64,000 nt of DNA from contig JAKVCD010000018.1 in the NCBI GenBank assembly GCA_022446815.1, forward strand, positions 211,908 through 275,907. The letters are read 5' to 3'. The notes beneath the pieces are model-generated. The model saw only the letters and a program-made list of their open reading frames with translations. It was not told where the DNA came from and ran no database searches. How positions within the stretch are numbered: position 1 is the first letter of the stretch; each line of letters opens with the position of its first letter. Shown one piece after another: positions 6,426 to 49,461 of the stretch. The translations under genes were made by a program, and so were the position numbers. The DNA comes from Planctomycetota bacterium. GTDB taxonomy: Bacteria; Planctomycetota; UBA1135; GCA-002686595.

Positions 6426-7179
6426 GCCGGCGCGACTCCTGATCATCGCAGGGAGAGACTCCAGCGGTGGAGCGGGTGTCGTGGCCGACCTCGAGGCGGC
6501 TAAGTGGGCGGGCGTGAGCGCTCACGTCGTGGTCACAGCAGAGACACGGCAGGGGAGTGAGGGACTTGTGGAGCTAGGCGCGAGGTCTCCACGAGAGTGG
6601 GTGGAGGAGGCGTCGCGCGCTCTCGAGGAGGGCATCGAGGCGGTCAAGTTCGGACTCCTGCCTGGGGCGGAGCACATCGAGGCGGCCGCTAGGCTGTTGG
6701 AAGAGATCGAGGAGCGTGTCCCGGTCGTCGTAGACCCGGTGCTCGCCCCGAGCTTAGGGGGGCGCTTCCTAGATGCGCTGGGCGTCTTGGCGCTGCGGGA
6801 AGAGCTGCTCCCTAGGGGCTGTGTCTTGACCCCTAATATTTTGGAGGCAGCAGAGCTGACCGAGCGCCCGCTGAAGCTCCTCATGGAGAGCCCGGAGGCT
6901 CGAGTCGAGGCAGCAGAGGAGCTGATCGAGCGTGGAGCGGGGGGCGTGCTGATCAAGGGGGGACACGCCGAAGGAGAGCTCGCTGAGCTTGTCTGTGAGC
7001 CAGGCAAAGAGCCTGTGTGGCTTCGCCTAGAGCGGCGAAGCGGTAGCCTGCGAGGGACGGGCTGTAGGCACGCTACAGCCGTCGCAGCCTCCCTGGCGAA
7101 GGGGATCCAGCTCAGCGAGGCTGCCAAGGTCTCCAGCGCTTGGATAGGCTCCCTCTTCCCGTCTCAGGGGGCCTTTTGA
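6388..7179 (+). CDS. thiD: Hydroxymethylpyrimidine/phosphomethylpyrimidine kinase
   Basis: LLIIAGRDSSGGAGVVADL, VKFGLLP, VVDPVL, LTPNILEA, LIKGGH and LRGTGCRHATAVAA are present. Start chosen at an in-frame ATG overlapping the upstream gene, so the exact start is uncertain. Confidence 0.75.
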   Translation: MVRTDPKSATSSEPARLLIIAGRDSSGGAGVVADLEAAKWAGVSAHVVVTAETRQGSEGLVELGARSPREWVEEASRALEEGIEAVKFGLLPGAEHIEAAARLLEEIEERVPVVVDPVLAPSLGGRFLDALGVLALREELLPRGCVLTPNILEAAELTERPLKLLMESPEARVEAAEELIERGAGGVLIKGGHAEGELAELVCEPGKEPVWLRLERRSGSLRGTGCRHATAVAASLAKGIQLSEAAKVSSAWIGSLFPSQGAF

Positions 7180-7270
7180 CGGCTCTTTCGGGCTGCCACT
7201 TGCCTTCTGTGGAGCCGGAGGTACTCTTTTCCACCCACGAGAGAGGCGCATCGCGCCGCTCTAGGTGAAC

Positions 7271-7345
7271 GCGGCTGTAGCTCAGTGGTAGAGCGCAACC
7301 TTGCCAAGGTTGATGTCGAGGGTTCAAATCCCTTCAGCCGCTCCA
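7271..7345 (+). tRNA. tRNA-Gly (anticodon GCC), CCA encoded
   Basis: gcggctg acceptor stem pairs with cagccgc. Anticodon arm is caacc-ttGCCaa-ggttg. T-arm is gaggg-ttcaaat-ccctt. Confidence 0.9.
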
Positions 7346-7348
7346 CAA

Positions 7349-7396
7349 TGCGCGTTTCCGGGCCTCTCAAGAGGGCTGCGAGCGCGTTTTTTTTTT
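7349..7396 (+). terminator. Probable terminator after tRNA-Gly
   Basis: Imperfect GC hairpin (cgcg..ggcctct caag agagggc..cgcg) followed by T10. Confidence 0.6.
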
Positions 7397-7480
7397 GGAT
7401 GTTGATTCAGTGAACTCGTCGCCTTCGGATTCGTTGTGCGATGCGTCCACGATCCCCACCTCTGAAGGAGAACTCCCCAT

Positions 7481-9523: not shown

Positions 9524-9564
9524 GCCTCTTCCACCACTCCGCGGTCTAAGAGGGGAGAATCTAT

Positions 9565-10302
9565 GTGGGCGCAGCCCCCACACTCCTCGTGAGAGATCTC
9601 AAGCACATCACCAATAGGTCCATCCCGCTACGGAGTCGCCGGAGAAGGGAGGCCTCTGGGCTCCCTGTGGCCTTCACGTACTCCTTGGGTCTGCACGCGC
9701 TCGCGATGGCGGCGGTGGTGCTCGTCGCTGAGCTTGAGTGGAGCTCGCCTGTGGGCACAGCGAGCACCCCCCTCGAGGTCAGGATCGCTTCCCTCCCGAA
9801 CCAGATGACCTTGGAGGAAGAGAGCGAGCGAGAGCTGCTGACAGAGCTGCCTCCGGTCTCAAACCTCGTCGATCTGGTGGAGGAGCTCCCCGTCTTCGAT
9901 CCGGCCCAGCCCATGAGGCCCACGGCCCGGGATCCGCTCTTGGAGGAAGATCCCTTCGAAGCGCTCGAGCTCGAGGCCTTTGAAGGCTTGCCCGAGGAAG
10001 AGTCCGTTCAAGTGGAGGAGGCCAAAGAGGAGCCGGTCGGAGAGCGAGAGCCTCTGCGACAGCTCTTAGAGAGCCCTGCGGTGATCTATCCAGAGAGCGC
10101 AGCGCTGCGTCGCCTAGAGGGAACGGTCCTCATCAGCATGATCGTCGGACCCGACGGCGGAGTCATAGAGGTCGTGCTGGTTGAGAGCAGCGGTCATGGC
10201 TCTCTAGATCGCGCGGCGATTCAAGCTGCGCGGCGCTATCGCTTTGAGCCTGGGGAGGACACGATCACAGTCTCAAAGCCCTTCACCTTCCGCCTCTCCT
10301 GA
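9565..10302 (+). CDS. Energy transducer TonB-family protein
   Basis: N-terminal TM LHALAMAAVVLVA, an acidic/Pro linker, and a C-terminal domain PVIYPESAALRRLEGTVLISMIV..G.V..V.LVESSGHGSLDRAAIQAARRYRFEP. GTG start per track. Confidence 0.75.
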   Translation: MGAAPTLLVRDLKHITNRSIPLRSRRRREASGLPVAFTYSLGLHALAMAAVVLVAELEWSSPVGTASTPLEVRIASLPNQMTLEEESERELLTELPPVSNLVDLVEELPVFDPAQPMRPTARDPLLEEDPFEALELEAFEGLPEEESVQVEEAKEEPVGEREPLRQLLESPAVIYPESAALRRLEGTVLISMIVGPDGGVIEVVLVESSGHGSLDRAAIQAARRYRFEPGEDTITVSKPFTFRLS

Positions 10303-15286: not shown

Positions 15287-15364
<78 letters not shown>

Positions 15365-31556: not shown

Positions 31557-34328
31557 TCAGGCGCCCCAGACGATGTTGATAGCGTTGGTGAGGTTGTGGC
31601 TGTTGCCGCAGAGCCCACCACTGGAGACCTCACGGTACCAGTACTGGTAGTTCAGGCTGTCGCCAGCGCTGACACCTCCGGTCGCGGCGAGATCCACGGT
31701 AGAGAGGGCGTTACCAGAGGCGTCAGAGGCTGTCACCTGGAGGCGGATGGCGTTGAAGCCAGCGCAGCGTAGGCCGTCTCCGAAGGGGAGTCCGGCGCCG
31801 CCGTTCACAGCGTTCTCACCAGAGAAGAACACGCCCGGGAGACCCGGAACCGCGCCCACCGCGAGGAGGGAGACGCTGGAAGCGCTAGCGCTCGGGCTAC
31901 CCGTAGCGGCCAGGGAGGCCGGCTGGGTGGTTGAGTTAACACAACCAGAGGGCAGGATCTGAAGCGCGTCGTTGCCACAGGGGCAAGCGCCGCCGCTACC
32001 GTTGCAGTAGGGGACACCCGTCGTCGCGATGACAGAGAGGATGCCGGTGCCAGCTTCACCTCCGCTCCAGCCGCCGACATTGACCTGATAGGTCGTGCCT
32101 GCCGCGGCGAAGAAGCCGAGGCCAGACTGGAGACCGCAGAGGTCGTCGCTGCAAGCGACCTCAGCACCACCGCAGCCATCGAAGACCGCGAGGACTGTGT
32201 CGAAGTCAGCGGCAGGGGTGCCGTCTAGGTTGCAGAGCGCCATGATCACGAGGCCATTCTCAGCCGCCGTGTAGGAGTGCCAGACATCGTTGAAGTTGTC
32301 ACGGCAGGAGATCGCAGTACCACCAGAGGCAGCCGCCGATCCGTAGCTCGCGCCAGTCGTGTCGATCAAGTTCGCACCATCGACGAGCGTGCCAGCGTTG
32401 GCGCAGTCATCGTGCGGGTGCGGAGGCAACGCGCTACCGATCGAGATCGTCAGGTTGCCAGAGCCGCCGGCAGTGCCGGGGAAGTGGCCGACTTGGAGCA
32501 GGTAGCTCGAGCCGCTCGTGACGTCAAAGCTCATCTCAGAGGTGAAGCCAGCGCAACCGGATGCGTCGTCGTTACAAGCGAGCGACGAGCCGTCGACAGG
32601 GCAACCGCCGGCCGGATAAGCCGCGATCTTCGTGTCAGCGCTCGCGTCGTTGCAGGTCGAGATCGTGGCGGTGCCGTCGGCGTCAGCGGTCCACTCGAAC
32701 CAGACGTCGTTGTCGACCGCGGAGCTGCCGAAGCTGTAGCAGAGGACCTCGTTCTGTCCCTCAGCGCCAGTCGTCGCTGTGACCGCGCTGAAGGGGAAGG
32801 CCCCTTGGCCAGCGATCGCCTCGGGAGCGGAGCAGTCGTCTGCGCAGCCGGTGCAAGAGGATGCTTGGCTGACGTTCAGAGTGGCGGCGCCACCGGGAGA
32901 GCCGGGGAAGTTACCGCACATGATGAGGTAGCTCGAACCAGCGGTGCAGCTGAAGGCGATCTGCGACTGGAGGCCGCAGGTGTCGTCGTTGCATGCGAGA
33001 GCAGCGCCGTCAGCGGGGCAAGCGCCACCGTCGAAGGCAGCGATCTTGGTATCCGGGGCAGAGCCACAGGTGTCCATGGTCACGGTGCCGCTGACGGTCG
33101 CGGTCCACTCGAACCACATATCGTTGTCGACGGCTGAGCTTCCAAAGGCGAAGCAGAGGGCCTCGTTTTGACCTTCAGCGTCTGTCGAGTTGCTGGAGTT
33201 GTCATAGGCGAAGTTGCCGTCACCGGAGATCGCGCTCGGGTTGGAGCAGGTCTCACCCTCGGCGGCGACCAGGGTTTGCGTGATTGTCACGTTGCCAACG
33301 CCGCCGGAAGTGCCGGGGAAGTGCCCAACCTGCAGGAGATAGCTGCTACCTGCGGTGCAGGCGAAGGACATCTCTGAGGTGAAGCCTGCGCAGCCCGTGC
33401 CGTCGTCGTTACAAGCGAGCGCCGAGCCGTCAACGGGGCAACCGCCGGCCGGATAAGCCGCGATCTTCGTGTCAGCGCTTGCGTCGCTGCAAGTAGAGAC
33501 GGTGACCGATCCATTGGTGTCGCAGGTCCACTCGAACCAGACGTCGTTATCAACTGCGGAGCTTCCGAAGTTGTAGCAGAGGGCCTCGTTCTGTCCCTCA
33601 GCGCCCGTCGTCGCGGCAGTCGCGTCGAAGGGGAAGACACCGTCACCGGAGATGGGTGTAGCGTCAGCACACTCGTCTGTACCGGTCGTCACGCAGGGGG
33701 CCGTGACGGTGATATTAAGGAGACCAGTTCCACCGCCTGAGCCAGGGAAGCTGCCGACCTGAATCAGGTAGGCGGTCCCTGCTGTGACTGCCATGTCGAG
33801 CTCAGAGGTGAAGCCAGAGCAGCCAGAGGCATCGTCGTTGCATGCGATGGCCGAACCGTCAGCGGGGCAACCGCCAGCGGGGTAGACCGCGAGTCTCGTG
33901 TCGAAAGTGGCGCTATCGCAGAGCGAGACGTTCGCTGAGCCGTCGCACTCTGTGTTGGTCCACTCGAACCAGACGTCGTTCTCGATAGCGCTTGAGCCGA
34001 AGCTGTAGCAGATCGCTTCATTCTGACCTTCAGCGCCAGTTACGGCAGCACTGGAGTCGAAGGGGAAGGATCCTCCGCCCGCGATAGGGGTAGCGGCGGC
34101 GCAGTCATCGGCGCCAGGGACGCCCATATTGAGCTGTCCGCCGATCGTGCCGATCCTGCCGAGGTTGACAGTCTGCTTGGACTGATAGTTGGGCTTTGAG
34201 GTCGGCTGGGGCTTTTGTCCCGGGCGTGCGACCTGCTTCTGCTGAACCTGCGCTGTCGTCGCAGGCACTTGTGCGAACGCGAGGCCTGTACAGGCCATGA
34301 TCGCGAAAGCGAATGTGAAACGTTTCAT
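31557..34328 (-). CDS. Secreted Cys-rich protein B: five tandem modules plus the shared C-terminal domain
   Basis: Start at ATG 34328 gives signal peptide MKRFTFAFAIMACTGLAFAQ, then a Q/P/K-rich linker. Five modules follow, with boundaries near nt 34109, 33677, 33254, 32840 and 32411, then a 151-aa tail. Confidence 0.85.
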   Translation of the reverse strand: MKRFTFAFAIMACTGLAFAQVPATTAQVQQKQVARPGQKPQPTSKPNYQSKQTVNLGRIGTIGGQLNMGVPGADDCAAATPIAGGGSFPFDSSAAVTGAEGQNEAICYSFGSSAIENDVWFEWTNTECDGSANVSLCDSATFDTRLAVYPAGGCPADGSAIACNDDASGCSGFTSELDMAVTAGTAYLIQVGSFPGSGGGTGLLNITVTAPCVTTGTDECADATPISGDGVFPFDATAATTGAEGQNEALCYNFGSSAVDNDVWFEWTCDTNGSVTVSTCSDASADTKIAAYPAGGCPVDGSALACNDDGTGCAGFTSEMSFACTAGSSYLLQVGHFPGTSGGVGNVTITQTLVAAEGETCSNPSAISGDGNFAYDNSSNSTDAEGQNEALCFAFGSSAVDNDMWFEWTATVSGTVTMDTCGSAPDTKIAAFDGGACPADGAALACNDDTCGLQSQIAFSCTAGSSYLIMCGNFPGSPGGAATLNVSQASSCTGCADDCSAPEAIAGQGAFPFSAVTATTGAEGQNEVLCYSFGSSAVDNDVWFEWTADADGTATISTCNDASADTKIAAYPAGGCPVDGSSLACNDDASGCAGFTSEMSFDVTSGSSYLLQVGHFPGTAGGSGNLTISIGSALPPHPHDDCANAGTLVDGANLIDTTGASYGSAAASGGTAISCRDNFNDVWHSYTAAENGLVIMALCNLDGTPAADFDTVLAVFDGCGGAEVACSDDLCGLQSGLGFFAAAGTTYQVNVGGWSGGEAGTGILSVIATTGVPYCNGSGGACPCGNDALQILPSGCVNSTTQPASLAATGSPSASASSVSLLAVGAVPGLPGVFFSGENAVNGGAGLPFGDGLRCAGFNAIRLQVTASDASGNALSTVDLAATGGVSAGDSLNYQYWYREVSSGGLCGNSHNLTNAINIVWGA
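31560..32012 (-). other. Shared C-terminal domain (copy in B)
   Basis: YCNGSGGACPCGN..GCVNST..LLAVGAVPGLPGVFFSGENAV..FGDGLRCAG..NYQYWYRE..C..HNLTNAINIVWGA. Confidence 0.8.
32013..34109 (-). repeat. Intragenic tandem array of 5 coding modules of 133-144 aa (399-432 nt)
   Basis: Each unit begins D-[DE]-C (one begins E-T-C). Each carries GQNE..C[YF].FGSSA[VI][DE]NDVWFEWT, DT[KR][IL]A.[YF], ACNDD and YL[IL]QVG.FPG. The fifth unit is divergent. Confidence 0.9.
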
Positions 34329-34572
34329 GGGAGTTGTGTGAATGGGTTTATGTGTGGATCCAAAGAACACGAGAGGGAGGTTTTGAAGCTGGCGTTACCC
34401 TGCCTGAACTCACGAAACATGCGAGTCCACTACCCTGCCGGTCCTACTCCAGACTCACCCAGAAACGCAAAATCGGCAATCTACAAACTAGAAGATTCGA
34501 GGTTAGACCCCTCTAGACACCCGAAAACCACACTTATTGGTGAGTTCGCTTGGCTTGGCGATCAGCCACAGT

Positions 34573-34710: not shown

Positions 34711-37017
34711 TCACGCGCTCCAGGTCAGCTCAATACCGTTCGTCAGGTTGAACTGAGCGCCACAGGCCGAGGTGGCCGGGTCACGGTACCAGACCTGGTA
34801 GCGCTTGACGTCACCAGCAGCGACTTGACCTTTGGTCGAGATGCTGATGTTGGTGTCGGCAGCGCCGCTTGCGTCAGGGAAGCGGACCTGGACTCGGATG
34901 ACCCCACCGCCAGCGCAGCGGAGGCCGTCACCAAACTGGATGCCGTCACCGCTTTGGATAGCGTTGTTGCCCTGGAAGAATAGACCGGGCTGGTTGGGCA
35001 GCAGCTGAGTCGCACTCAAGACGAGGGTGTCGTTTGAGATGCTCGTGTCACCAGAGCAGGTGAGCTTGCCACCGACGCCGGAGCCGTTAGCGCAACCTTC
35101 ACCGGTGGCGCCAGCGTTACCGCAGGGGCAAACCGTCGCGCCAGTGTCGTCGCCAGAGCAGTACACCGTGCAGGGGCCCGTCGGATCGCCTGCGATGATG
35201 CAGTCGAAGGTGCCCGCACCGATACCAGCGGCACTGAACGTACCGAACTGAATCAGGTAGGTGGTGTTGCTCGTGACGCTGAACTGCATCTCGGACTGAA
35301 GACCACAGACGTCGTCGTTGCAGGCCAGGATCGTGCCGGGGACCGGCGGGCAGGCGTTGGGCCATGCCGCGATCTTGGTGTCGAGCGTCGCGCCTCCGTT
35401 GCAGAGGGTGACGTCGGCGAGGCCGGTGGCATCAGCGGTCCATGAGAACCAGATGTCGTTGTTCACGGCGCTGGAGCCGAAGGCGTAGCACAGAGCTTCG
35501 TTTTGACCGTCGGTTCCAGTGGTCGCGGGGAGCGAGGCCGTGGAAGCGCCGGAGTTGTCGAAGTTGAAGGTGCCTTGACCAGAGATGGCGACCGGAGCCG
35601 AGCACTCGTCGTTCGGGTGCAAGACCGGCGGAGCGCCAGCAGAGATGTCTAGGGTGCCTTGGCCACCAGCGGCGCCAGGGAAGCTACCAACCTGCAGGAG
35701 GTAGGTGGTTCCGGTGGTCGCCGAGAAGTTGATCTCCGAGGTGAAGCCAGCGCAGCCAGTGAAGTCATCGTTGCAGGCCAGAGCGGAGCCCGCAGCCGGG
35801 CAGCCACCGCTGGGGTAAGCAGCGAGCTTAGTGTCATAGGCGGCGTTGTTGCACGTCGAGACGGTCGCGTTGCCGGTGAAGTCAGACGTCCAGTCGAACC
35901 AGATGTCGTTATCAACCGCGGAGGAGCCGAAGTCGTAGCAGATGTACTCGTTCTGCCCTTCGGCGCCGGTCGTCGCCAGGGTCGTGTCGTAGGTGAACTG
36001 GCCTTGGCCCGCGAGGGGGTCAGGGCTGCTGCAGTCGTCGTTACCTGACGGCGGCGCGAGGCCGTTGATGTCAAGGTTGCCGGTACCGCCGGTGGCGCCA
36101 GGGAAGGTGCCGACCTGGATCGTGTAGACCGAGCCAGAGGTGGCCGCGAGGATGACGCTCGACTGCAGGGCGCAGTTGTCATCGTTGCAGGCCAAAACTG
36201 CACCAGCGCTCGGGCAGCCGGCGCCGGGGTAGACACCGATCTTGGTGTCGACGGTGGTGGCGCCGCAGGTCCCGATGCTCACGCTCTCGGATGCAGGGGC
36301 TGTCCACTCGAACCAGACGTCGTTGTCGACCGCGGAGGAGCCGAACGCGTAGCAAGCGTACTCGTTCTGACCCTCAGCGCCGGTGGTGGCGAAGCTGTTG
36401 TCGAAGGCGTAGCTGCCGTAGCCGCTGATCGCGTCAGCGCTGGCGCAGTCGTCGTTACCGCCGCCTCCGCCGCCGCCGCCGCCGCCGCCGCTCTCACTGA
36501 CGTTGATGGTGCCGGTTCCGCCAGCTGAGCCGGGGAAGTTGCCGACCTGGATCAGGTAGCTCGTCGATGCCGTGCAAGGGAACGAGATCTGCGACTGAAG
36601 GCCGCAGGTGTCGTCGTTGCAGGCGATAGAAGAGCCGGCCGCGGGGCAAGCACCGCCAGGGTAGGCAGCGATCTTGGTGTCGAGGGTGTTTCCGCAGGTG
36701 TCGACGAGAGCTGTGCCGGTCGTCGCTGCGGTCCACTCGAACCAAACATCGTTGTCGATGGCGGAGGAGCCGAACGCGTAGCAGGCGTACTCGTTCTGGC
36801 CTTCAGCGCCGCTTGTAGCCGCCGAGTTGTTGAAGTTGAAGGTGCCAGCGCCAGAGATGGCAACGGGCGTATTGCAGTCATCGCTGCCACCAACCGAAGC
36901 GTTGATGGTAGTCATCATCATCGCCTTCGTCTTACTGGTTGGTTTTTGGGCCGGCTGCTGGGCGTTCGCGGAGCTCGCGCCGATCAGCAGACATGCGGCC
37001 AAGATGGAAAATTTCAT
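34711..37017 (-). CDS. Secreted Cys-rich protein C: four tandem modules plus the shared C-terminal domain
   Basis: Signal peptide MKFSILAACLLIGASSANAQ and a Q/P/K linker. Module boundaries lie near nt 36882, 36453, 36039 and 35610. A Gly11 linker follows module 1. The tail is 153 aa. Confidence 0.85.
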   Translation of the reverse strand: MKFSILAACLLIGASSANAQQPAQKPTSKTKAMMMTTINASVGGSDDCNTPVAISGAGTFNFNNSAATSGAEGQNEYACYAFGSSAIDNDVWFEWTAATTGTALVDTCGNTLDTKIAAYPGGACPAAGSSIACNDDTCGLQSQISFPCTASTSYLIQVGNFPGSAGGTGTINVSESGGGGGGGGGGGNDDCASADAISGYGSYAFDNSFATTGAEGQNEYACYAFGSSAVDNDVWFEWTAPASESVSIGTCGATTVDTKIGVYPGAGCPSAGAVLACNDDNCALQSSVILAATSGSVYTIQVGTFPGATGGTGNLDINGLAPPSGNDDCSSPDPLAGQGQFTYDTTLATTGAEGQNEYICYDFGSSAVDNDIWFDWTSDFTGNATVSTCNNAAYDTKLAAYPSGGCPAAGSALACNDDFTGCAGFTSEINFSATTGTTYLLQVGSFPGAAGGQGTLDISAGAPPVLHPNDECSAPVAISGQGTFNFDNSGASTASLPATTGTDGQNEALCYAFGSSAVNNDIWFSWTADATGLADVTLCNGGATLDTKIAAWPNACPPVPGTILACNDDVCGLQSEMQFSVTSNTTYLIQFGTFSAAGIGAGTFDCIIAGDPTGPCTVYCSGDDTGATVCPCGNAGATGEGCANGSGVGGKLTCSGDTSISNDTLVLSATQLLPNQPGLFFQGNNAIQSGDGIQFGDGLRCAGGGVIRVQVRFPDASGAADTNISISTKGQVAAGDVKRYQVWYRDPATSACGAQFNLTNGIELTWSA
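34714..35172 (-). other. Shared C-terminal domain (copy in C)
   Basis: YCSGDDTGATVCPCGNAGATGEGCANGSGVGGKL..TLVLSATQLLPNQPGLFFQGNNAI..FGDGLRCAGG..RYQVWYRD..C..FNLTNGIELTWSA. Confidence 0.8.
35173..36882 (-). repeat. Intragenic tandem array of 4 coding modules of 138-146 aa
   Basis: Same module consensus as in B. Two subtypes are interleaved: NDD.CG[LF]QS and NDD..GC.GFTSE. Confidence 0.9.
36457..36489 (-). repeat. Trinucleotide tract encoding Gly11
   Basis: Plus strand reads acc gcc gcc tcc then (gcc)x7, with the perfect (GCC)7 at 36469-36489. It forms the linker between modules 1 and 2 of C. Confidence 0.9.
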
Positions 37018-40898: not shown

Positions 40899-41399
40899 TT
40901 AGATCGGCCGGCGGATGCGACGCCGGAGGTCTGTGACCTCATCGACGACCGGATCCTCGGACGGGGGGGGGACGCCGACGTCGAGCGCCCTCGCGCATGA
41001 CGGGAGCGAGACGTGGGACGCGATGGACGGAGGCAGGAGCGTGCCAGACGCCTCGGCGCTCTCGAGCTCACCTGATTGGGCGTAGACCAAGACTTGTCCA
41101 GGGCTCTGGAGCGCGAGCGCGCCAGTGCTTTGAAGCTGACCTCTGTTGAGGCTTGTGATCTCCATCCAATGCTCACTGATGCTTCGAGCAGGGAAGCGGA
41201 AAGCGAGGGTGCCTTTTGCGGGGACCGCGAGGTGTAGGACAGCGCTGCGGTCTGAGCTCGCGAAGCTCACAACGAGGGTGCCCATCGAGTGGTTCTTTGC
41301 CTCGAGGGTGTGCTCAGTGATCTCGCAGCTGAAGATGGGCGCTTGGGGGGCCGCCTCAGGGGCTGCCGCGAGTGAGAGGAGGAGGCTGGGGATGAGCAT
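40899..41399 (-). CDS. Small secreted hypothetical protein, last gene of the ECF-CHAT operon
   Basis: The internal ATG at 41399 gives a signal-like N-terminus MLIPSLLLSLAAAPEAAPQAP. The body is beta-rich. No family recognised. Confidence 0.5.
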   Translation of the reverse strand: MLIPSLLLSLAAAPEAAPQAPIFSCEITEHTLEAKNHSMGTLVVSFASSDRSAVLHLAVPAKGTLAFRFPARSISEHWMEITSLNRGQLQSTGALALQSPGQVLVYAQSGELESAEASGTLLPPSIASHVSLPSCARALDVGVPPPSEDPVVDEVTDLRRRIRRPI

Positions 41400-41622
41400 T
41401 TGGTCTTCCTTCTTGGCGGGGACTTGTTCCCCCGGGAAGACAGGTATCGACATCATGGGGCTAGCGCTTGAGAGAGCTAGAGCCCGACCCCGCATGCGGG
41501 ACTGCAGGGGGACCTCAGGGTCTACAGCTCCCATTTGTGCGGTTTTATCGCTACATGTAGAGTCTTAAGCTACTGTTTAGCAGGTGCTTACGCCTGCATC
41601 CCCTGTCGTCGTAGCTTGGGGC

Positions 41623-44190
41623 TCAGTCCCTGCCGAAGAGCTGGAAGGCGGCCCAGTCAGGGCTCCCGTTCGCGCGCAGGCGCCGGCCTGCGTTCCTCAC
41701 GGCCTCCGAAGGCGTCATCTTCGCTAAGAGTGCCTCGTGCATGGCGACCCCGAAGTCTCGGGCGGCCTCGTCCGGGACTGGCCATTGCGTCGCGACGACG
41801 TTGCGGGTCCCCGTAGAGAGGAAGGCGCGGCAGAAACCTAGCACCCCTTCTCCGTCGAGCACCTGGCCTCCGGCCGTCTCACATCCCATCAAGATGACGA
41901 GCTCCCTCGCGCCGGGTTTGGCCGGGAGGTCTGCGACGCCTAGGGTCACGCCATCTGTGAGCTCCCATGCGGGGCCTGGCCCGTCTGCCGTCTCGACCCA
42001 CTCAACGTGGGTCGCGACGTGGAGGCAGTCGTCGCCCTCAAGCGCTTTGAGCATCGCCGCCTTGGTCATCGCCGCACCCATCAAGAGCTCGGCGGGCCGT
42101 CGCGCGCTGATCTTCTCTAGCTCATCGACTGCGGCTTCAAGTCTCGGACGTCCGTCTCTCACGAGCGGTGCGCCAGCGAGAGTCCAGCTCGCCGCTGGGA
42201 GCTTGGACTCGCCAGGGCTTAGGTCCGGTATGCCAGGAAGCGTCCTCAAGGTCGCGGCCTCACTGAGGAGGAGCGTCTCTGCGCTTTCAGCCCTGTGGAC
42301 TCTGAGCGCGCTCACAGGGAGGGACTCGAGCGGCCCATGCGTGCAGAGCAAGAGGCTGCCGCTGTTTGAGGTGGCGAGGAGCTCTCTCAGCGCGCTCGGG
42401 AGCAGGCTCGTTGCGAGCTCGATGCCTACGTCCTCTGCGCTCGTTTCATCGCCCTCCCGCAGGGCTTGCGTCAGATGACTCACTGCGCGCTGGATCGCAC
42501 GCCTGCCGTGGGGGATCTCAAGAGAGTCTGTCCGACCATCGGGGCCAATCCAGAGCGCGAGGCCTTCGTCGGGGCCCAAGGCCCAGGTCACCAATCCGTG
42601 CTGTGTCCCAGCAGCCCATCTGAGGAGGTCGTTCTCTTCGATGCCCCGAATAGCAGAGCGGAGGCTCCTCGACTGGAGCTCCTCTATCGTTCGTGCTGCG
42701 AGCAGGGGGCGCTCGAGCTGCACGTAGGTGCGCGCGAGGAGTTGGACAGCGTGCATGCCGAGCGCCTCGCCCCCGAGGCTCGCGGTCTCGCTCGCGGAGG
42801 TCCGCGGAGCGAGGCCTCTGTCGCGCTCGAGCGCCCTGCGAAACGCGGGCTCTAGGGCTGCGCGTGCGAGCTCGAAGTGCCCTGAGCGGTGAAGATGTTC
42901 TCCAGAGTAGATCTCCGCGATCTCTTTGAGCTCGGTGGGGAGTGTAGAGATCCATGACTCGCTCAACAGGGTGGAGAGATCTCCCAAACTGCGCTCGCGC
43001 CTTGAGCCGGTCAGCTCATCGAGGGATCTCAACGCGAGGTATGCGCGCAGCAGGCGCGAGCGATTGGTATAGGTGACGCCACGGTTCAGCAACGCCTCTG
43101 CCTGCTCCAGCTCGCCCGCGCGAATGAGGACTGTGGCCTCGAGATCACGCGCTTGGTCGCGGAGCTTAGGAGATGAGAGAGGGTCGACACCTGCGGCGGA
43201 TTGGCGGTCGAAGAGCGCATCTAGGTAGAAGGAGTGCGCTTGCTCAGGATGATCCTCGTCGATCAGCCAGGTGACAGTCTCCTGCGCCCATGCCCACCAC
43301 TCTTCGAGCGCCGTGCGATCCGGGTCACGAGCGAGCGCACCCCACTCGCGTAAGAGCCGCTCCCGCTCGAGACCTAAGCCTGCGCGGTCAGCGGCGCGTA
43401 CGAGTGAGCGAAGGAAGAGAGACTCATAGAGTGAGTCGTTGATCTCGCGCGCTAGCTGCAGCCCGCGGAGGGCGTGAGCGCGAGCGGTGCTGAGATCGGC
43501 GGTGCGCAAGCGCGCACGGGCAGCGACCTCGAGGGCCTCGACCTCTTGTTCGTAGAAGCCCACACGTCCGTACGTGTCGACGGCGCGCTCTGCGAGCGTG
43601 GAGGCGCTGGAGGCGTCGGCGATGCCCTCGCCTCTGAGGAGCAGCTCTGCACTGATGCGCCTTGCGTAGGCAGCGGGGAGCGGGTCTCTCAGCTCGTCGA
43701 GCTCTCGCGTGATCTCGTCGAGCTCTCGCAGCAGCTCGCTGCGCTCATAGTTGGGATCTGCGCTGAAGGCGTCGAGGGAGGCTTCGATTCGATCGATCCC
43801 AGCTCCTGCGAGCATCGCTTGCAGCGAGTCGAGCGAGGTCAGGTGTGTGGTTACGCGCAGGGCATCTTCGCGGCCGCACGCTTCGTTGAGCTCACTCGCT
43901 AAGGATCGGAGCGAGGGCTGATCAGTCGACTCGCCGCGGTGCACCGCTCGGAGTCCTTCTCGTAGTTGGCGTAGCTGGTCTACGCAGGCTGGCGCCGCGC
44001 TTGCGGAGAGGGACTCCGATGAGGGCTGCGGCGCTGGTGGAGCGAGCGCTTCAGCTCGCGAAGGCCTCTCCGGAAGGCTCCCGATCGCAGCGCTGACTAC
44101 GAGCAGGCTCCCAGCGCTCACCAAGAGGGCAGACTCAAGCGAGAGGTCTCGCCTCGGGCGGAGGGCCTCCTCCAAGTCTCCGCGCGTCAT
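41623..44190 (-). CDS. Membrane-anchored TPR-like / CHAT-domain (caspase-fold) protein
   Basis: N-terminal anchor SALLVSAGSLLVVSAAIGSL after a basic stretch. About 500 aa of helical repeats follow. The C-terminal ~325 aa have LLLCTHG, CLHVATHVE (His box) and ELVILMGCETAGG (Cys box), as in CHAT domains. Confidence 0.8.
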   Translation of the reverse strand: MTRGDLEEALRPRRDLSLESALLVSAGSLLVVSAAIGSLPERPSRAEALAPPAPQPSSESLSASAAPACVDQLRQLREGLRAVHRGESTDQPSLRSLASELNEACGREDALRVTTHLTSLDSLQAMLAGAGIDRIEASLDAFSADPNYERSELLRELDEITRELDELRDPLPAAYARRISAELLLRGEGIADASSASTLAERAVDTYGRVGFYEQEVEALEVAARARLRTADLSTARAHALRGLQLAREINDSLYESLFLRSLVRAADRAGLGLERERLLREWGALARDPDRTALEEWWAWAQETVTWLIDEDHPEQAHSFYLDALFDRQSAAGVDPLSSPKLRDQARDLEATVLIRAGELEQAEALLNRGVTYTNRSRLLRAYLALRSLDELTGSRRERSLGDLSTLLSESWISTLPTELKEIAEIYSGEHLHRSGHFELARAALEPAFRRALERDRGLAPRTSASETASLGGEALGMHAVQLLARTYVQLERPLLAARTIEELQSRSLRSAIRGIEENDLLRWAAGTQHGLVTWALGPDEGLALWIGPDGRTDSLEIPHGRRAIQRAVSHLTQALREGDETSAEDVGIELATSLLPSALRELLATSNSGSLLLCTHGPLESLPVSALRVHRAESAETLLLSEAATLRTLPGIPDLSPGESKLPAASWTLAGAPLVRDGRPRLEAAVDELEKISARRPAELLMGAAMTKAAMLKALEGDDCLHVATHVEWVETADGPGPAWELTDGVTLGVADLPAKPGARELVILMGCETAGGQVLDGEGVLGFCRAFLSTGTRNVVATQWPVPDEAARDFGVAMHEALLAKMTPSEAVRNAGRRLRANGSPDWAAFQLFGRD

Positions 44191-44199
44191 CGCGCGAGG

Positions 44200-45312
44200 T
44201 CAGTCGGCAGGGGTGACGGCGAGGAAGCGCTCGGCCTCGTACTTATTGCACATACCTCGTCTGACGAGGTCTCTCGCGAGCGCTCGCGCGTCCGCGATGA
44301 AGTTGTTCTCGTGCAGCTCCCTCACAGCTCCGACTCCGCCGCCCTGGTGGAGGATGGCCTGCTCAAGCCCTTGGTTGTGCACCACGTTGAAGTTCGCTTC
44401 GCCGAGGCGTCGAGGCGTACCGTCGAGCTCACGGAGTGACCATGCCTCCCATGAGTAGCGGCCTGCAGGGAGTGGGCCAGCGAGTTGGAGCGTGGGCTCA
44501 GAGCTGGTGATGTGATAGAGCAGCATGCGCTCCTTGGGGTCCGCGAGCGCAGAGCTGTGGCCCTGATAGACGTAGATGTCGTAGCTTGCTTCACCGCTCT
44601 CAGGGCGCACCTCAAAGAGGACGTCGCTGAGCCTAGGAAGGCCCGGGAGGTCCTTAGAGCGGGCAAGCACGAGGTCTTTAGGAGACACGAGGCGCTGGGC
44701 TGTGTTGCCACGCATCACAGCAGGGCTGGGGAAGCCGTCGAGGTCCTTGCCAAGCACTGAGGAGGGCCACCCGCTCAGCATCAAGACGGCGAGCATGGAC
44801 GCGGCAACTAGGAAGGGGACGTGCCTCAGGCCAGGCCGAGAGGTCGCACGCGGGCTACGAGCCAGAGTGAGCTCACGTGAGCTCTTCGTGCGAGGTGCAG
44901 GTGTGGGGGTGGGAAGCGGCATAGGGCTGTCGACGACGATCAGCGGGCTGGGTGGGCGCTCAGCGAGCGTTGAGACGAGGGCAGCACAGTCGGCGCAGCC
45001 CTTGATGTGTTCTGCAATCTCGGCTTGGCGGGAGAGGCTGAGGCTGGTGGGCTCTAGCGATTGCCCAAAGTCAAAGAGCTCTTCAGCGCTCGGGCAGCAG
45101 CTCTTCTCTTCAGTAGAGTCAACGGTCGCTTCCGAGGGCTCTGTGAGCCACGCCTCTGCGAGCTGCAGGCGGTGCAGATGGACTCGCGCAGTAGGGTCTG
45201 CCTCAAGCTCTGCGAGCTCTGCTTCGTCGAGCTCGTCGTAGCCAAGCAAGCGCTCGATGATCTGGGCGGAGAGGACCTCTTCGTCCGGGGGCGTGGGGTC
45301 AGGCTGTTCCAT
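44200..45312 (-). CDS. Anti-sigma factor, zf-HC2 (ZAS) type, single-pass with large extracytoplasmic domain
   Basis: H-x3-C-x2-C motif HIKGCADC. TM helix VPFLVAASMLAVLMLSGW. About 190 aa lie C-terminal of the TM. A 12-nt gap separates it from the sigma gene. Confidence 0.7.
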   Translation of the reverse strand: MEQPDPTPPDEEVLSAQIIERLLGYDELDEAELAELEADPTARVHLHRLQLAEAWLTEPSEATVDSTEEKSCCPSAEELFDFGQSLEPTSLSLSRQAEIAEHIKGCADCAALVSTLAERPPSPLIVVDSPMPLPTPTPAPRTKSSRELTLARSPRATSRPGLRHVPFLVAASMLAVLMLSGWPSSVLGKDLDGFPSPAVMRGNTAQRLVSPKDLVLARSKDLPGLPRLSDVLFEVRPESGEASYDIYVYQGHSSALADPKERMLLYHITSSEPTLQLAGPLPAGRYSWEAWSLRELDGTPRRLGEANFNVVHNQGLEQAILHQGGGVGAVRELHENNFIADARALARDLVRRGMCNKYEAERFLAVTPAD

Positions 45313-45324
45313 CTTGGCGCAGGG

Positions 45325-45930
45325 TCAGCCAGCGAGGCCGACCTCTCCTTTCAAAGGGTTGTTGTTGATAAGCAGTCTGCGCAGTGAGCGCTTCGCTCCG
45401 TTCAACCTGTACTTCGTCGTCTCGAGCGTCAGTGAGAGGCGCGAGGAGACCTCACGCAGGCTGAGCTCGTGGAGATAGCGCAGCTCTAGCAGGTTCCTCT
45501 CTTGAGGGTCTAGACGAGTCAGAGCGTCGCGGACTTCACCCGCGATCTCTGCGTCGGCCGCGCTCTCAAGGGGGCCGGGGTCTTCAGCGTCTTGCTCGGG
45601 GACTGCCTCTTGAGGCAACCTGCTTCCAGGAGCCTGGCGGGCCTTGAGTCGCCGCTGCAAGTCGACGCAGCGGCACCAAGCCACCCTGTAGAGCCAGGTG
45701 CCTAACGCGCCGCGCTCCGGGTCGAAGTGGTCGCCATCAAGCCGCTCAAGGGAGTACTTGAGGAGCTCCTGTAGGAGGTCATCGCGCTCAAGGTCCCTCC
45801 CCGCAAACTGGCTAATGCAGTGGTGCAGCAGGGGCGAATAGCGCTCCAAAAAGACCTCCATGGCCTTGGGATCGCGCGCTTGGAGCCCGCTGACGAGCTC
45901 CACCTCTTCCATAGTCTTCTCGGATTTCAT
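45325..45930 (-). CDS. ECF-type RNA polymerase sigma-70 family factor
   Basis: Region 2 (FLERYSPLLHHCISQFAG, DDLLQELLKYSLERL, GTWLYRVAWCRCVDLQRR) and region 4 (ERNLLELRYLHELSLREVSSRLSLTLETTKYRLNGAKRSLRRLL) are present. The start could be upstream at 45993. Confidence 0.85.
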   Translation of the reverse strand: MKSEKTMEEVELVSGLQARDPKAMEVFLERYSPLLHHCISQFAGRDLERDDLLQELLKYSLERLDGDHFDPERGALGTWLYRVAWCRCVDLQRRLKARQAPGSRLPQEAVPEQDAEDPGPLESAADAEIAGEVRDALTRLDPQERNLLELRYLHELSLREVSSRLSLTLETTKYRLNGAKRSLRRLLINNNPLKGEVGLAG

Positions 45931-46076
45931 GGGGATCGAGGAGCGCTGAAGGCGCCCCCGGCATGGCTTCTTTTCGGCCCGGAATCCCATCACCGACCCA
46001 GGATGAGTCAGATGAGGGCCTCGAGTCCCTATCTCGCTCCCAGCTGGTGCGGCCTGTTGCCCGAAAGGAGTTCAAG

Positions 46077-46102
46077 TTCGTGCTGGCTTCCCATTAGGTT
46101 CC
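46077..46102 (-). promoter_or_regulatory. Candidate ECF-type promoter (GGAAC-N17-CGAA) upstream of the sigma gene
   Basis: The minus strand reads GGAACctaatggggaagccagcaCGAA-like, approximately. This is a single by-eye match with no second copy found upstream of other genes in the window. Confidence 0.2.
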
Positions 46103-46262
46103 TATCCAAAATGGGCCTCCTGACGCCTAAGAGGCCCTATGAGGACCCTCGCGAGGGGTCTGGTGGTCACCAAGGGGTGCAGATTATGATCCTTGGTCCA
46201 AGACCCTCCTTCTTAACTCTCACTGAGAGTCCATCGGCACGAACCAAGAACCCCAGATTCCT

Positions 46263-47441
46263 ATGTCAGCTGTCATTGTCAGCGCCTGCAGAACCCCGGT
46301 CGGGACCTTCCAGGGTGGCCTGAGCGCCCTCAGCGCTCCAACGCTTGGTTCCCTCGCAGTCCAAGAGGCCGTTCGACGCGCGGGCGTCGATGTAGGCCAA
46401 GTTGAAGAGTGCTTGATGGGCAATGTCCTGCAGGCCGGCCTCGGGCAGAACCCTGCGCGCCAGGCTGCGCGTGGCGCAGGCCTCCCCGATGCGATCGGCT
46501 CAACCACGATCAATAAGGTCTGCGGCTCAGGCCTGAAGAGCGTGATGCTCGCTGCGCAGGCCATCAAGGCTGGTGACCACGCGTGCGTCGTGGCTGGTGG
46601 GATGGAGAGCATGACTCGCGCCCCCTACCTCGTGCCCCAGGCACGCGATGGCGTCCGTCTCGGGCACGGAGAGCTGATCGACTCTATGGTCGGTGACGGG
46701 CTCTGGGACGTCTACAACGACTTTCACATGGGCATCACGGCAGAGATGGTCGCGGATGAGCACGACGTCTCTCGTGAAGCTCAAGACGCCTTCGCGGCTG
46801 AGAGCCATCGCCGCGCCGCGGATGCTGCCAAGGCGGGTCGCTTTGACGATGAGAAGTTCACAGTCAACGTCCCGCAGCGCAGAGGGGACGACGTCCCGTT
46901 CACCACAGACGAGAACATCCGCGAGGGTATGACGGCTGAGTCCATCGCCGGGATGCGGCCAGCGTTCAAGAAGGACGGTTCGGTGACGGCCGGGAACGCC
47001 TCCTCGATCAACGATGGCGCAGCCGCGCTCGTCGTGATGAGCGAGGAGATGGCGGCGGACCTCGGCAAGGCGCCGCTCGCTCGCATCACTGCCTACGCTA
47101 CCGGCGGTTGCGCGCCGGAGTGGGTGATGATGGCACCGGAGCACTCGATCAAGAAGTGCGCTGGGATGCTCGGAATGGAGCCCAGCGACTTTGACCTGCA
47201 CGAGATCAACGAGGCCTTCAGCGCGGCAGCGCTCGCGCTGACGCGCACCCTCTCCCTTGACGCTGAGAAGGTCAATGTCAACGGTGGCGCGGTCGCGCTC
47301 GGACACCCGATCGGGGCGTCTGGCGCGCGCGTCTTAGTGACCTTGCTGCACGCAATGCAGCAGCAGGACGCGAAGACAGGGATGGCCTCTCTCTGCCTCG
47401 GAGGCGGAAACGCAGTCTCTCTAGCGGTGGAGAGGGTCTAG
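46263..47441 (+). CDS. Acetyl-CoA C-acetyltransferase (thiolase II)
   Basis: [45 protein letters not shown] and CLGGGNAV are present. Confidence 0.9.
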   Translation: MSAVIVSACRTPVGTFQGGLSALSAPTLGSLAVQEAVRRAGVDVGQVEECLMGNVLQAGLGQNPARQAARGAGLPDAIGSTTINKVCGSGLKSVMLAAQAIKAGDHACVVAGGMESMTRAPYLVPQARDGVRLGHGELIDSMVGDGLWDVYNDFHMGITAEMVADEHDVSREAQDAFAAESHRRAADAAKAGRFDDEKFTVNVPQRRGDDVPFTTDENIREGMTAESIAGMRPAFKKDGSVTAGNASSINDGAAALVVMSEEMAADLGKAPLARITAYATGGCAPEWVMMAPEHSIKKCAGMLGMEPSDFDLHEINEAFSAAALALTRTLSLDAEKVNVNGGAVALGHPIGASGARVLVTLLHAMQQQDAKTGMASLCLGGGNAVSLAVERV

Positions 47442-47444
47442 CTC

Positions 47445-48305
47445 ATGTCTGACAACATCCACGAGAAGGTCAGCGTGATCGGCGCTGGCACCATGGGCAA
47501 CGGGATCGCACAGGTCTTCGCGATGAGCGGGAGCTCCGTCAACCTGATCGACCTGAACGAAGAGGCCCTCGCGCGCGGCCTCGCGACGATCGAGAAGAAC
47601 CTCGCACGAGTCGTGAAGAAGGGTGGCCTCAGCGAAGAGGATGCTGCTGCTGCGCTCGGTCGCATCACGACGGGTGACTCTCTCGCTCTCGCCGCGGACA
47701 GCGGGCTCGTCGTAGAGGCAGTCGTCGAGAAGAGTGAAGTGAAGGGCGCGGTCTTCCGTGAGCTCGACGAGATCTGCGCCCCCGGCGCGATCCTCGCCTC
47801 AAACACCTCCTCGATCTCGATCACGGAGATCGCGTCGAACACCAAGCGGCCCGAGCAGGTGATCGGGATGCACTTCATGAACCCTGTGCCTGTGATGAAG
47901 CTCGTAGAGGTCATCAGGGGGAGAGAGACCTCAGACGAGACGACCGCTCAGGTGGTCTCATGCTCTGAGGAGGTCGGGAAGATCCCGGTCGAGGTCAACG
48001 ACTCTCCTGGCTTCGTCTCGAACAGAGTCCTTATGCCGATGATCAACGAGGCCGCCCACTGCCTCTCAGAGGGGGTCTCGACCCCTGAGGGAGTGGACGC
48101 AGTGATGAAGATCGGTATGGCTCACCCTATGGGTCCGCTCACGCTCGCGGACCTTATCGGGCTTGACGTCTGTGTAGACATCCTCGAGGTCTTGCGCGCC
48201 GGACTCGGCGATGACAAGTACGCTCCGAGCCCTGCTCTCCTTGAGCGGGTCCAGGCGGGGCACCTTGGCCGAAAGAGCGGAAAGGGCTTCTACGACTACG
48301 AATAG
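47445..48305 (+). CDS. hbd: 3-hydroxybutyryl-CoA dehydrogenase
   Basis: [35 protein letters not shown] and GFVSNR are present. Confidence 0.88.
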
Positions 48306-48318
48306 GTCGATGCTAAGA

Positions 48319-49461
48319 ATGAACTTCGAACTGAATGAGGAGCTCGCGATGGTGCGCGACATGGCGCGCGACTTCGCGACCGCAGAGCTCGACCCGCGCG
48401 CGCAGCGGCACGACGAGCAAGGACACATCGACGAAGAGGTCTTCGGGCTCATCAGCGAGCTCGGCCTCTGGGGCCTCACGATCCCTGAGGAGTATGGCGG
48501 GGCAGGGATGGGCAACCTGGCCCTCTCGCTGGTCTTGGAGGAGCTCAATCGAGCAGATGCCTCCGTGGGAGTGACCCTCTCCGTGCACAACAGCCTCCTC
48601 GGCGCGCCCATTATGAAGTTCGCGACCGACGAGCAGAAGCAGCGGTGGCTGCCGCAGCTAGCCTCTGGAGAGGCGATCGGCTGTTACTGCTTGACCGAAC
48701 CGAACGCTGGGTCTGACGCGGCTGCGCTGCAAACGCGGGCCGTACGGGACGGAGACGATTGGATCCTCTCAGGGACGAAGATCTGGGTGACGAACGGCGG
48801 GCTCGCCTCGCTCGGGATCGTCTATGCGCGGACAGACCCTGACGCGTCGAACGCTAATGGGATCAGCGCCTTCCTCGTCCCGCTCGACGCCGAGGGGATC
48901 AGCCTCGGAGCCCCAGAGAAGAAGACCGGCATCCGCGCCTCATCTACTGTAGAGATTCAGTTCGACGACGTGCGGGTCCAAGGTGACGCGTTGCTGGGTG
49001 AGGAGAATCGCGGTTTCCAGATCGCGATGGACACCCTCGATGGCGGCCGCATTGGCATCGCGAGTCAAGCGGTAGGGATCGGCCGCGCTTGTCTCGAGGC
49101 CAGCGTGAAGTACGCCGGCGAGCGCGAGCAGTTCAATCAACCCATCGGTCGCTTTCAGGCGATCCAGTGGAAGATCGCTGACATGGCGACACGCCTCGAC
49201 GCTGCGCGGCTCCTGACTTGGCGCGCTGCCACGCTGCGTGACGAGGGCGCTCGCTGCAGCCTCCAAGCGGCGCAAGCGAAGCTCTCCGCGTCGACCGCAT
49301 GCAACTACGCCGCCGACGAGTGCCTCCAGATCCACGGCGGCGCTGGCTACACCGACGACTTCCAAGTGGAGCGCCTCTTCCGAGACGCCCGCATCACCGA
49401 GATCTACGAGGGCGCCTCCGACATCCAGCGCATCGTGATCGCACGGAGCCTCATGTCCTGA
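48319..49461 (+). CDS. Acyl-CoA dehydrogenase (short-chain/butyryl-CoA type)
   Basis: MNFELNEE..RDFA, CLTEPNAGSDA, WITNG, QIHGGAGYT and RDARITEIYEG are present. The ATG at 48310 is an alternative start. Confidence 0.88.
   Translation: MNFELNEELAMVRDMARDFATAELDPRAQRHDEQGHIDEEVFGLISELGLWGLTIPEEYGGAGMGNLALSLVLEELNRADASVGVTLSVHNSLLGAPIMKFATDEQKQRWLPQLASGEAIGCYCLTEPNAGSDAAALQTRAVRDGDDWILSGTKIWVTNGGLASLGIVYARTDPDASNANGISAFLVPLDAEGISLGAPEKKTGIRASSTVEIQFDDVRVQGDALLGEENRGFQIAMDTLDGGRIGIASQAVGIGRACLEASVKYAGEREQFNQPIGRFQAIQWKIADMATRLDAARLLTWRAATLRDEGARCSLQAAQAKLSASTACNYAADECLQIHGGAGYTDDFQVERLFRDARITEIYEGASDIQRIVIARSLMS

Follow-up and report, generated by a model that had tools for sequence, protein, structure and literature searches.

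A Planctomycetota cassette of sigma factor, anti-sigma factor and TPR-CHAT protein genes as a possible split form of the DdvA system

The closest described system to the one treated here is DdvA of Myxococcus xanthus, reported in 2024, a transmembrane zinc-binding anti-sigma (ZAS) factor that carries a periplasmic region of scaffold, tetratricopeptide repeats (TPR) and a CHAT protease domain behind a flexible linker (PMC11506125; PDB 8ROT, 8RW5; also PMC6061681). The transmembrane (TM) helix of DdvA (residues 71–92) is followed by the linker (95–143) and then by scaffold/TPR and CHAT, and its authors proposed that CHAT cuts the linker in trans within a dimer, thereby performing the site-1 step ahead of RseP. 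A truncated DdvA, from which TPR-CHAT was removed, is degraded by RseP, while TPR-CHAT sterically blocks RseP; DdvA-like proteins were reported only from Myxococcota and from a single species of Comamonas (PMC11506125). Another TPR-CHAT protein, Csx29 of the craspase described in 2022, cleaves Csx30 and thereby frees an inhibited sigma factor (CASP-sigma) resembling the extracytoplasmic function (ECF) type (PMC10028731; PDB 8EEY). For the ECF54 context, PMC8999054, citing Huang et al. 2015, describes a CHAT protein conserved beside sigma with proposed proteolytic control, and no anti-sigma factor. In this study, we analyzed a stretch of 64,000 nt from Planctomycetota bacterium GCA_022446815.1 (contig JAKVCD010000018.1, 211,908–275,907, forward strand; in the following the window), which holds a cassette of four minus-strand genes for an ECF sigma factor, a ZAS-type anti-sigma factor, a TPR-like CHAT protein and a small exported protein. 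An earlier reading, made from the letters of the sequence without database searches, had suggested a caspase-like site-1 step in ECF sigma factor release as a mechanism not yet characterized. This idea is preceded by the DdvA/DdvS proposal (PMC11506125), Csx29 cleavage (PMC10028731) and the ECF54 contexts with CHAT (PMC8999054), and is therefore not new in kind. New here is that the arrangement is split, for action in trans, and that the juxtamembrane linker of the anti-sigma factor bears a conserved (M/L)RG motif, a candidate site for the inferred cleavage. With a confidence slightly short of an even chance, we propose that the cassette is a split DdvA-type system, in which an exported CHAT protein would act in trans on the anti-sigma linker, followed by a site-2 step and release of the sigma factor.

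All four open reading frames (ORFs) were found exactly where the sequence-only reading had placed them, and the gene identities it had given were borne out by domain matches and conservation. The sigma factor gene (45325–45930; 201 aa) and the anti-sigma factor gene (44200–45312; 370 aa) are separated by 12 nt, and the anti-sigma factor gene and the CHAT protein gene (41623–44190; 855 aa) by 9 nt, in agreement with the gaps first read from the sequence. The tight packing claimed for the whole cassette thus applies to these three genes, but not to the fourth gene (40899–41399; 166 aa), since the latter follows after a gap of 223 nt that contains a conserved non-coding block. The product of the first gene belongs to the ECF (group 4) sigma factors. 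It contains regions 2 and 4 only, with no region 3 (Pfam Sigma70_r2, 1.9e-9; Sigma70_r4, 2.8e-9), and matches TIGR02937 for sigma70-ECF at 9.2e-28, exceeding the cutoff of 42.9 bits. SigW and SigL are its closest sequence matches in the PDB, and all NCBIfam equivalog and subfamily models scored far under their cutoffs on it. The proteins of the cassette evolve at unequal rates, with sigma factors 96–98% identical where the anti-sigma factors share about 79%, the CHAT proteins 66–70% and the small proteins about 77% identity, a pattern that fits fast-evolving extracytoplasmic sensing parts.

The anti-sigma factor carries HIKGCADC at residues 102–109. The Pfam family zf-HC2 matches the protein under its gathering cutoff (E = 0.031), C73, H102, C106 and C109 are invariant among 20 homologues down to 28% identity, and a weak alignment with RslA (3hug_B) spans the HxxxCxxC motif. 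Judged by this motif, the N-terminal helical domain and the sigma factor gene 12 nt away, the protein is of the ZAS type. Alignment and an AlphaFold model (pLDDT 70) gave a layout of acidic N-terminal helices, zinc-motif helices (76–117), a disordered cytoplasmic linker (121–162), one TM helix (about 163–185; 165–179 in the model), a disordered outside linker (180–203), a beta-sandwich (208–312) and a C-terminal helical tail. The single-pass topology with an outside domain of about 190 aa that had been expected was found, together with the zinc motif, with an outside domain of about 185 aa. Foldseek searches with the model returned only generic Ig/FN3/CopC-like beta-sandwiches without a functional lead. 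In the outside linker, 16–22 residues past the membrane, a (V/I)(M/L)RG motif was detected, the residues R201-G202 of which are invariant in all 20 aligned sequences and which aligns with ILRG of a Krumholzibacteriota homologue. Another invariant motif is RPPSPL, and the least conserved part of the protein is the cytoplasmic linker (14% identity in distant members). In a library of 1.8 billion proteins, a threshold of E ≤ 1e-30 yielded 153 clusters (50% identity) of the anti-sigma family.

The 855-aa protein matches CHAT (PF12770) at 1e-33 with residues 589–853, covering profile positions 4–288 of 289. It is composed of a hydrophobic segment (21–39), a linker (40–64), helical repeats (65–527) and the CHAT region (528–855). 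In an alignment of 14 orthologues (51–100% identity), the single hydrophobic segment is followed by an invariant Gly-Ser and by the Pro/Ala/Ser-rich, variable linker (28% identity), after which the sequence is well conserved to the end. HVATH (H724, H728) and GCE (C770) are invariant in the orthologues, and the GCE(S/T)AGG...LDGEG loop is strictly conserved. The catalytic residues H728 and C770 are kept in every relative examined, i.e., in the 14 orthologues and in 20 more distant relatives; the His and Cys boxes are thus intact, as noted before from the sequence, and loss of the dyad in orthologues, which had been named as possible counter-evidence, was not seen. In the AlphaFold model (pLDDT 79, pTM 0.74), the first 65 residues are disordered, followed by the helical repeats at 65–527 and an alpha/beta CHAT fold at 533–853. 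Of the roughly 500 aa of TPR-like helices claimed earlier, a helical-repeat region of about 460 aa is present according to the model and Foldseek, whereas no TPR is found by Pfam. As the top match to the model, Foldseek returned DdvA (8rw5/8rot; E = 4e-14, TM-score 0.45, about 850 columns of the 872-residue chain), followed by Csx29 and then by separases. A PDB sequence search with the CHAT family profile gave nothing meaningful, so the likeness to DdvA was revealed by fold comparison only. HxxxCxxC was not found in the CHAT protein, the N-terminal tail of which has just 20 residues.

For the side of the membrane on which the CHAT protein acts, the sequence-only reading had relied on a basic N-terminus in front of the hydrophobic helix. 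This argument did not hold, as the tail has four Lys/Arg against five Asp/Glu residues, and after mixed charge signs were seen in the 14 orthologues the positive-inside argument was dropped for evidence from diverged relatives. The location outside the cytoplasm itself is supported by that evidence and by the DdvA match. Diverged members of the CHAT family have short, positively charged, signal-peptide-like N-termini (e.g., MGARALFAGVHVAAALVLVASLSLPAVG and MARGARVVMGSLGVGLLFVFLNSLH), signal peptides or lipoboxes are present in the majority of the more distant relatives, and the CHAT relatives linked to ZAS proteins in two loci (L008, L011) bear clear cleavable signal peptides. In addition, the structure nearest to the CHAT model is the periplasmic part of DdvA. 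Judged by these relatives and by analogy with DdvA, the CHAT body, meaning the residues after the N-terminal segment, is probably extracytoplasmic. The hydrophobic segment may be either a cleaved signal peptide or an uncleaved anchor.

To follow the gene linkage, metagenomes were scanned with the anti-sigma alignment, which gave 40 loci with 27–99% anti-sigma identity, and their flanks were checked by tblastn. A sigma factor gene lies upstream of the anti-sigma factor gene in 40 of 40 loci, and the CHAT gene directly downstream of it in all 24 informative ones, i.e., those with a complete anti-sigma factor gene and at least 600 nt past it. No informative locus thus departs from the synteny of ECF sigma factor, anti-sigma factor and CHAT, and the lack of linkage that had been named as further counter-evidence was not seen. 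Of the approximately 17 loci with room for the small protein, 13 encode it; it was not detected in three diverged loci that keep the trio (L032, L036, L046). The contexts of the orthologues contain the same four genes, and anti-sigma homologues of only about 30% identity still lie between a sigma factor gene and a gene for a CHAT protein of about 850 aa. In relatives, the stop codon of the anti-sigma factor gene and the start codon of the CHAT gene overlap or abut.

The trio also occurs in a Krumholzibacteriota metagenome-assembled genome (MAG; L008), with a sigma factor, a short ZAS protein in which a TM helix, ILRG and a sandwich of GYRVVIYD type are present, and a TPR-CHAT protein with a clear signal peptide. 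Another metagenome locus (L011) has genes for a sigma-like protein, for a zf-HC2 protein of 366 aa (E = 1e-9) with the same layout, and for a CHAT protein with a signal peptide. The anti-sigma factors of both loci share HxxxCxxC, a TM helix, LRG and a Y-x-V-x-I/V-Y/F sandwich, and the two loci support the linkage independently of the 40 above. In a further locus (L016), a fused DdvA-like protein (P0029; 1284 aa) with zf-HC2, TM helix, TPR and CHAT adjoins a sigma factor gene. A genome scan for the CHAT family returned Planctomycetota MAGs only, plus matches to the catalytic region in two other phyla; in the Eisenbacteria locus (L009), no sigma factor gene was found among the ORFs tested. Some sigma-linked TPR-CHAT proteins (P0028, P0034) have no export signal.

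Beside these linked loci, some further arrangements were observed. In L016 (3678–5339, minus strand; 5433–9855), the gene for the fused protein and the sigma factor gene adjoin a divergent second gene of CHAT/Peptidase_C25-like type, which recalls the C25-type peptidase of the M. xanthus ddv operon. In a Planctomycetota MAG (L007; 6307–7263, 7260–9206), the CHAT ORF has just 648 aa, and a 318-aa ORF upstream in another frame contains a VPERSTQ tandem repeat; a frameshift or assembly problem in a repeat-rich linker is the probable reason. In L013 and L014/L015 (5342–11402), downstream of an oligopeptide ABC transporter, the genes encode, in this order, a sigma factor, a TPR-CHAT protein without export signal, a protein of roughly 210 aa that CarboxypepD_reg matches weakly, and a Peptidase_S8.

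The fourth gene encodes a protein of 166 aa with an N-terminal hydrophobic, signal-like segment, which has no match in Pfam, NCBIfam or PADLOC. Its orthologues are present in L001–L004, L006 and the 13 metagenomic loci. Counterparts of about 22% identity with clearer signal peptides occur in L017 and L018. The last 15 residues, VDEVTDLRRR(I/C)RRPI (window 40899–40950), are invariant in five orthologues; DEVTD in this tail resembles the DEVD sites of caspases and is followed by an Arg cluster, and the VDEVTDLRRR tail is not conserved in the two counterparts of about 22% identity.

In the spacer that separates the small gene from the CHAT gene (41400–41622, minus strand), the five-locus alignment revealed a conserved non-coding block, CTCAAGCG-N12-TGTCGATACCTGT (41440–41472, minus strand), about 45 nt upstream of the ATG of the small gene. 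This ATG is preceded by an invariant AAGGAAG Shine-Dalgarno sequence (region AAGAAGGAAGAC, 41403–41414, minus strand). Both the CTCAAGCG-N12-TGTCGATACCTGT block and the Shine-Dalgarno sequence are kept in the five loci, while the rest of the spacer has diverged; the spacer also contains a palindrome, CCCGCATGCGGG, at 41489–41500. The block at 41440–41472 may be a separate promoter of the small gene, possibly of an ECF-type AAG-N15-GTC form, or a regulatory site. A second copy of the conserved CAAG-N14-TGTCGAT element in the window (27912–27889) was judged to be due to chance, as it lies antisense within a coding gene.

As a split DdvA-type system, the cassette would work as follows. The DdvA polypeptide would be divided between two proteins of one cassette. 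The zinc-binding N-terminal domain of the anti-sigma factor would hold the ECF sigma factor in the cytoplasm, with linker and beta-sandwich exposed on the outside, and the TPR-CHAT protein, with a flexible linker after its signal peptide or signal anchor, would be located outside the cytoplasmic membrane. Triggered by a cue from outside the cytoplasm, probably a protein to which the helical repeats bind, CHAT would cut the exposed juxtamembrane linker of the anti-sigma factor, with (M/L)-R-G as candidate site. Thereby, the block on an RseP-type site-2 protease would be lifted, which would lead to degradation of the cytoplasmic fragment and set the sigma factor free. As a conserved accessory, the small exported protein would serve as ligand, inhibitor or target. 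The proposal is supported by the confirmed gene content, the fold match of the CHAT model to DdvA, the invariant C-H-C-C set, which resembles the CHCC zinc site of DdvA, the linkage in the metagenomic loci, the trios of L008 and L011, the fused P0029, the export signals of relatives, the conserved dyad, the disordered outside linker with its invariant R201-G202, and the precedents of Csx29 acting on Csx30 and RseP acting on DdvA. A more specific form of the proposal, which we hold tentatively and regard as somewhat doubtful, takes the cassette as a free-standing, probably ancestral DdvA machine, in which CHAT performs the site-1 cut in trans at (M/L)-R-G and the small protein is a securin-like inhibitor or an activating ligand.

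Several points weigh against a split DdvA-type system. Cleavage of DdvA by CHAT was never observed, and mutants of the DdvA dyad had no phenotype in unstimulated cells (PMC11506125). The charges flanking the hydrophobic segment in the 14 close CHAT orthologues give no consistent positive-inside signal, so that the CHAT topology rests on relatives and analogy. The linkage count is largely not phylogenetically independent, because most loci belong to one Planctomycetota lineage with a syntenic thiolase operon, the thiolase/3-hydroxyacyl-CoA dehydrogenase flank being syntenic in most loci too. In favor of the linkage, however, the cassette is whole in five loci (L047, L048, L052, L055, L043) where this flank is missing or displaced. 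For the L011 anti-sigma factor, hhalign gave a probability of 8% against the family profile, so homology of its ectodomain with that of the family rests on shared architecture and short motifs. Moreover, the RG could be conserved simply for a structural role where the beta-sandwich begins. Finally, attempts to define a sigma-dependent promoter or regulon in the window and in the loci failed.

Among other explanations, the one that survives best is that the CHAT protein is a co-sensor or shield on the beta-sandwich of the anti-sigma factor, comparable to the DdvA ectodomain or to RseB on RseA, which blocks a conventional site-1 or site-2 protease. Its protease activity would then be directed at another substrate, for instance the small exported protein or a foreign one coming in, and cleavage of this substrate would alter the interaction. 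We regard this explanation as unlikely. In its favor, the TPR-CHAT of DdvA blocks RseP sterically and its cleavage by CHAT was not seen (PMC11506125), helical-repeat regions usually bind proteins, and the small protein with its invariant acidic-then-basic C-terminal tail is co-conserved in the 13 loci mentioned. However, the cassette holds no other protease gene, the small protein is undetectable in the three diverged trio loci, and the dyad and the GCE(S/T)AGG...LDGEG loop are strictly conserved, which indicates that catalysis matters, whatever the substrate.

Considerably less probable, in our estimation, is that the CHAT protein and the small protein are outputs of the operon, with sigma and anti-sigma factor sensing through the beta-sandwich in a conventional manner. 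ECF operons often co-transcribe target genes, gene neighborhood alone cannot separate regulators from targets (Casas-Pastor et al., PMC7826278), and a separate conserved block precedes the small gene. The spacing of 9 nt and the stop and start codons that overlap or abut in relatives, in contrast, point to translational coupling and a fixed stoichiometry of CHAT protein and anti-sigma factor, and the linkage is still seen at 27% anti-sigma identity and in another phylum. Furthermore, fused ZAS-TM-TPR-CHAT proteins exist (DdvA; P0029 in L016), an argument for both parts working as a single machine. That the CHAT body is instead cytoplasmic on an N-out anchor and cuts the cytoplasmic linker of the anti-sigma factor (121–162) in a craspase-like manner is very improbable. 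In favor of this arrangement, Csx29 is a cytoplasmic TPR-CHAT protein that cleaves an anti-sigma-like protein (PMC10028731), the flank charges in close CHAT orthologues are ambiguous, the anti-sigma factor has a disordered 40-residue cytoplasmic linker and the invariant RPPSPL, and P0028 and P0034 are without export signal. Against it, no other part of the anti-sigma factor is as poorly conserved as this linker, diverged CHAT family members have signal-peptide-like N-termini with short basic n-regions, the signal peptides of the ZAS-linked relatives in L008 and L011 are clear and cleavable, and structurally the CHAT protein is closest to the periplasmic part of DdvA.

Upstream of the sigma factor gene, the intergenic region shared with the divergent thiolase operon (45931–46262) contains, on the minus strand, a GC-rich hairpin followed by the T-run ATTTTG (46137–46113), which adjoins the conserved blocks TAGGAAC...GGGAAaCCAGCAyGAA and GGGAGCGAGATAGGGAC. 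An alignment-based consensus fold gave no support for this hairpin in the sigma leader, and Rfam found no family in the cassette region apart from a sub-threshold radC match. A bipartite promoter motif shared by the regions upstream of the sigma factor gene and of the small gene was sought in diverged loci, where any motif occurred in at most 3 of 10 sequences; no counterpart of the motif in the 41400–41622 spacer was found upstream of sigma. A scan for sigma-70 promoters gave no match, and terminator-like sites did not exceed the level of shuffled controls. Above the gathering score, Rfam matched just two places in the window, tRNA-Gly(GCC) at 7271–7345 and tRNA-Pro(GGG) at 15287–15364, both on the plus strand.

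On one side, the cassette is flanked by genes for a thiolase, a 3-hydroxyacyl-CoA dehydrogenase (3HCDH) and an acyl-CoA dehydrogenase (46263–49461, plus strand). This operon is divergent from sigma in most of the loci L019–L058, even at about 30% anti-sigma identity, which raises the question of whether the sigma factor regulates the thiolase operon via the common intergenic region. On the other side, APH-like, racemase-like and GBD_T9SS_assoc genes are found. Two of them (31557–34370 and 34711–37017, minus strand) encode proteins of 937 and 768 aa with GBD_T9SS_assoc galactose-binding-like domains; they are located downstream of the cassette past an APH/methyltransferase-like gene, occur in orthologous loci as well and could be surface proteins. 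PADLOC gave no match to a defense system, with BovA at E = 0.006 and 13.6 bits as noise. CRISPR-like arrays were not found in the window, nor were Cas-like neighbors within about 10 kb. With no link to phage-defense islands here, the module is probably a general sensor of envelope signals and not specific for defense.

The site-1 proposal for DdvA could not be demonstrated because enzyme and substrate are one molecule with no known trigger. With protease, substrate and candidate accessory encoded by three genes, and with a candidate motif at hand, cleavage assays, mutants of the dyad and of the site, and binding studies are straightforward, so that the split architecture offers a clean experimental handle on the proposed, as yet unproven caspase-like site-1 step in ECF signaling. 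It also follows that TPR-CHAT modules of the extracytoplasmic, sigma-linked kind occur beyond the Myxococcota, to which the survey in the DdvA paper had seemed to restrict them: Planctomycetota contain a sizeable uncharacterized family of these modules, and others are found in further phyla. If an ancestral trans form is the correct reading, ECF signaling would have its first example of a site-1 step performed by a cysteine protease acting in trans. The system would then be widespread, with over 150 anti-sigma clusters in Planctomycetota and one or more further phyla, and it would be the simplest one for testing the unproven DdvA model, enzyme and substrate being separate proteins.

In comparison with known systems, the cassette shares with DdvA/DdvS an ECF sigma factor and a single-pass anti-sigma factor with a zinc domain of CHCC/ZAS type. 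The CHAT protein of the window resembles DdvA in its sequence of TM or hydrophobic segment, flexible linker, helical scaffold and CHAT with an intact His-Cys dyad, and the logic proposed for both is the same, with CHAT as site-1 protease followed by RseP. In contrast to DdvA, where both parts form one polypeptide, the ZAS domain and TPR-CHAT are encoded here by separate genes 9 nt apart, and as two separate membrane proteins they would require an intermolecular cleavage between different gene products. The anti-sigma factor of the window has a beta-sandwich ectodomain of its own, which DdvA lacks, and a small exported protein is co-conserved in the Planctomycetota cassette. In addition, PADLOC, array and neighbor scans found no CBASS (cyclic-oligonucleotide-based antiphage signaling) or CRISPR-Cas island near the cassette, and the host is a member of the Planctomycetota instead of the Myxococcota, with no detectable sequence similarity of the CHAT protein to DdvA.

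Csx29, the second-best structural match to the CHAT protein of the window and the sole demonstrated case of CHAT cleavage of a sigma inhibitor, is likewise encoded beside an ECF-like sigma factor and its inhibitor, with protease and substrate as separate proteins. It differs in being cytoplasmic, bound to the RNA-guided Cas7-11 effector (type III-E) and switched on by target RNA, and its substrate Csx30 is soluble and not of the ZAS type, unlike the anti-sigma factor described here. In the window, no CRISPR components were found, and the CHAT protein has an N-terminal export or anchor segment. The ECF54 neighborhoods (PMC8999054) contain CHAT, subtilase and carboxypeptidase-like genes, and it is L013 and L014 that resemble this type. 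The CHAT proteins of this type are without export signal and accompanied by an S8 peptidase, whereas the window cassette has a ZAS anti-sigma factor, an N-terminal hydrophobic segment on the CHAT protein and no S8 peptidase. With the canonical proteolytic cascades (DegS/RseP on RseA, PrsW/RasP on RsiW, Prc), the cassette shares the N-in single-pass anti-sigma factor, the exposed ectodomain and the expected two-step release. The site-1 enzymes of these cascades, however, are serine or metalloproteases encoded elsewhere in the genome, while the candidate for this step here is a caspase-fold cysteine protease encoded in the operon itself.

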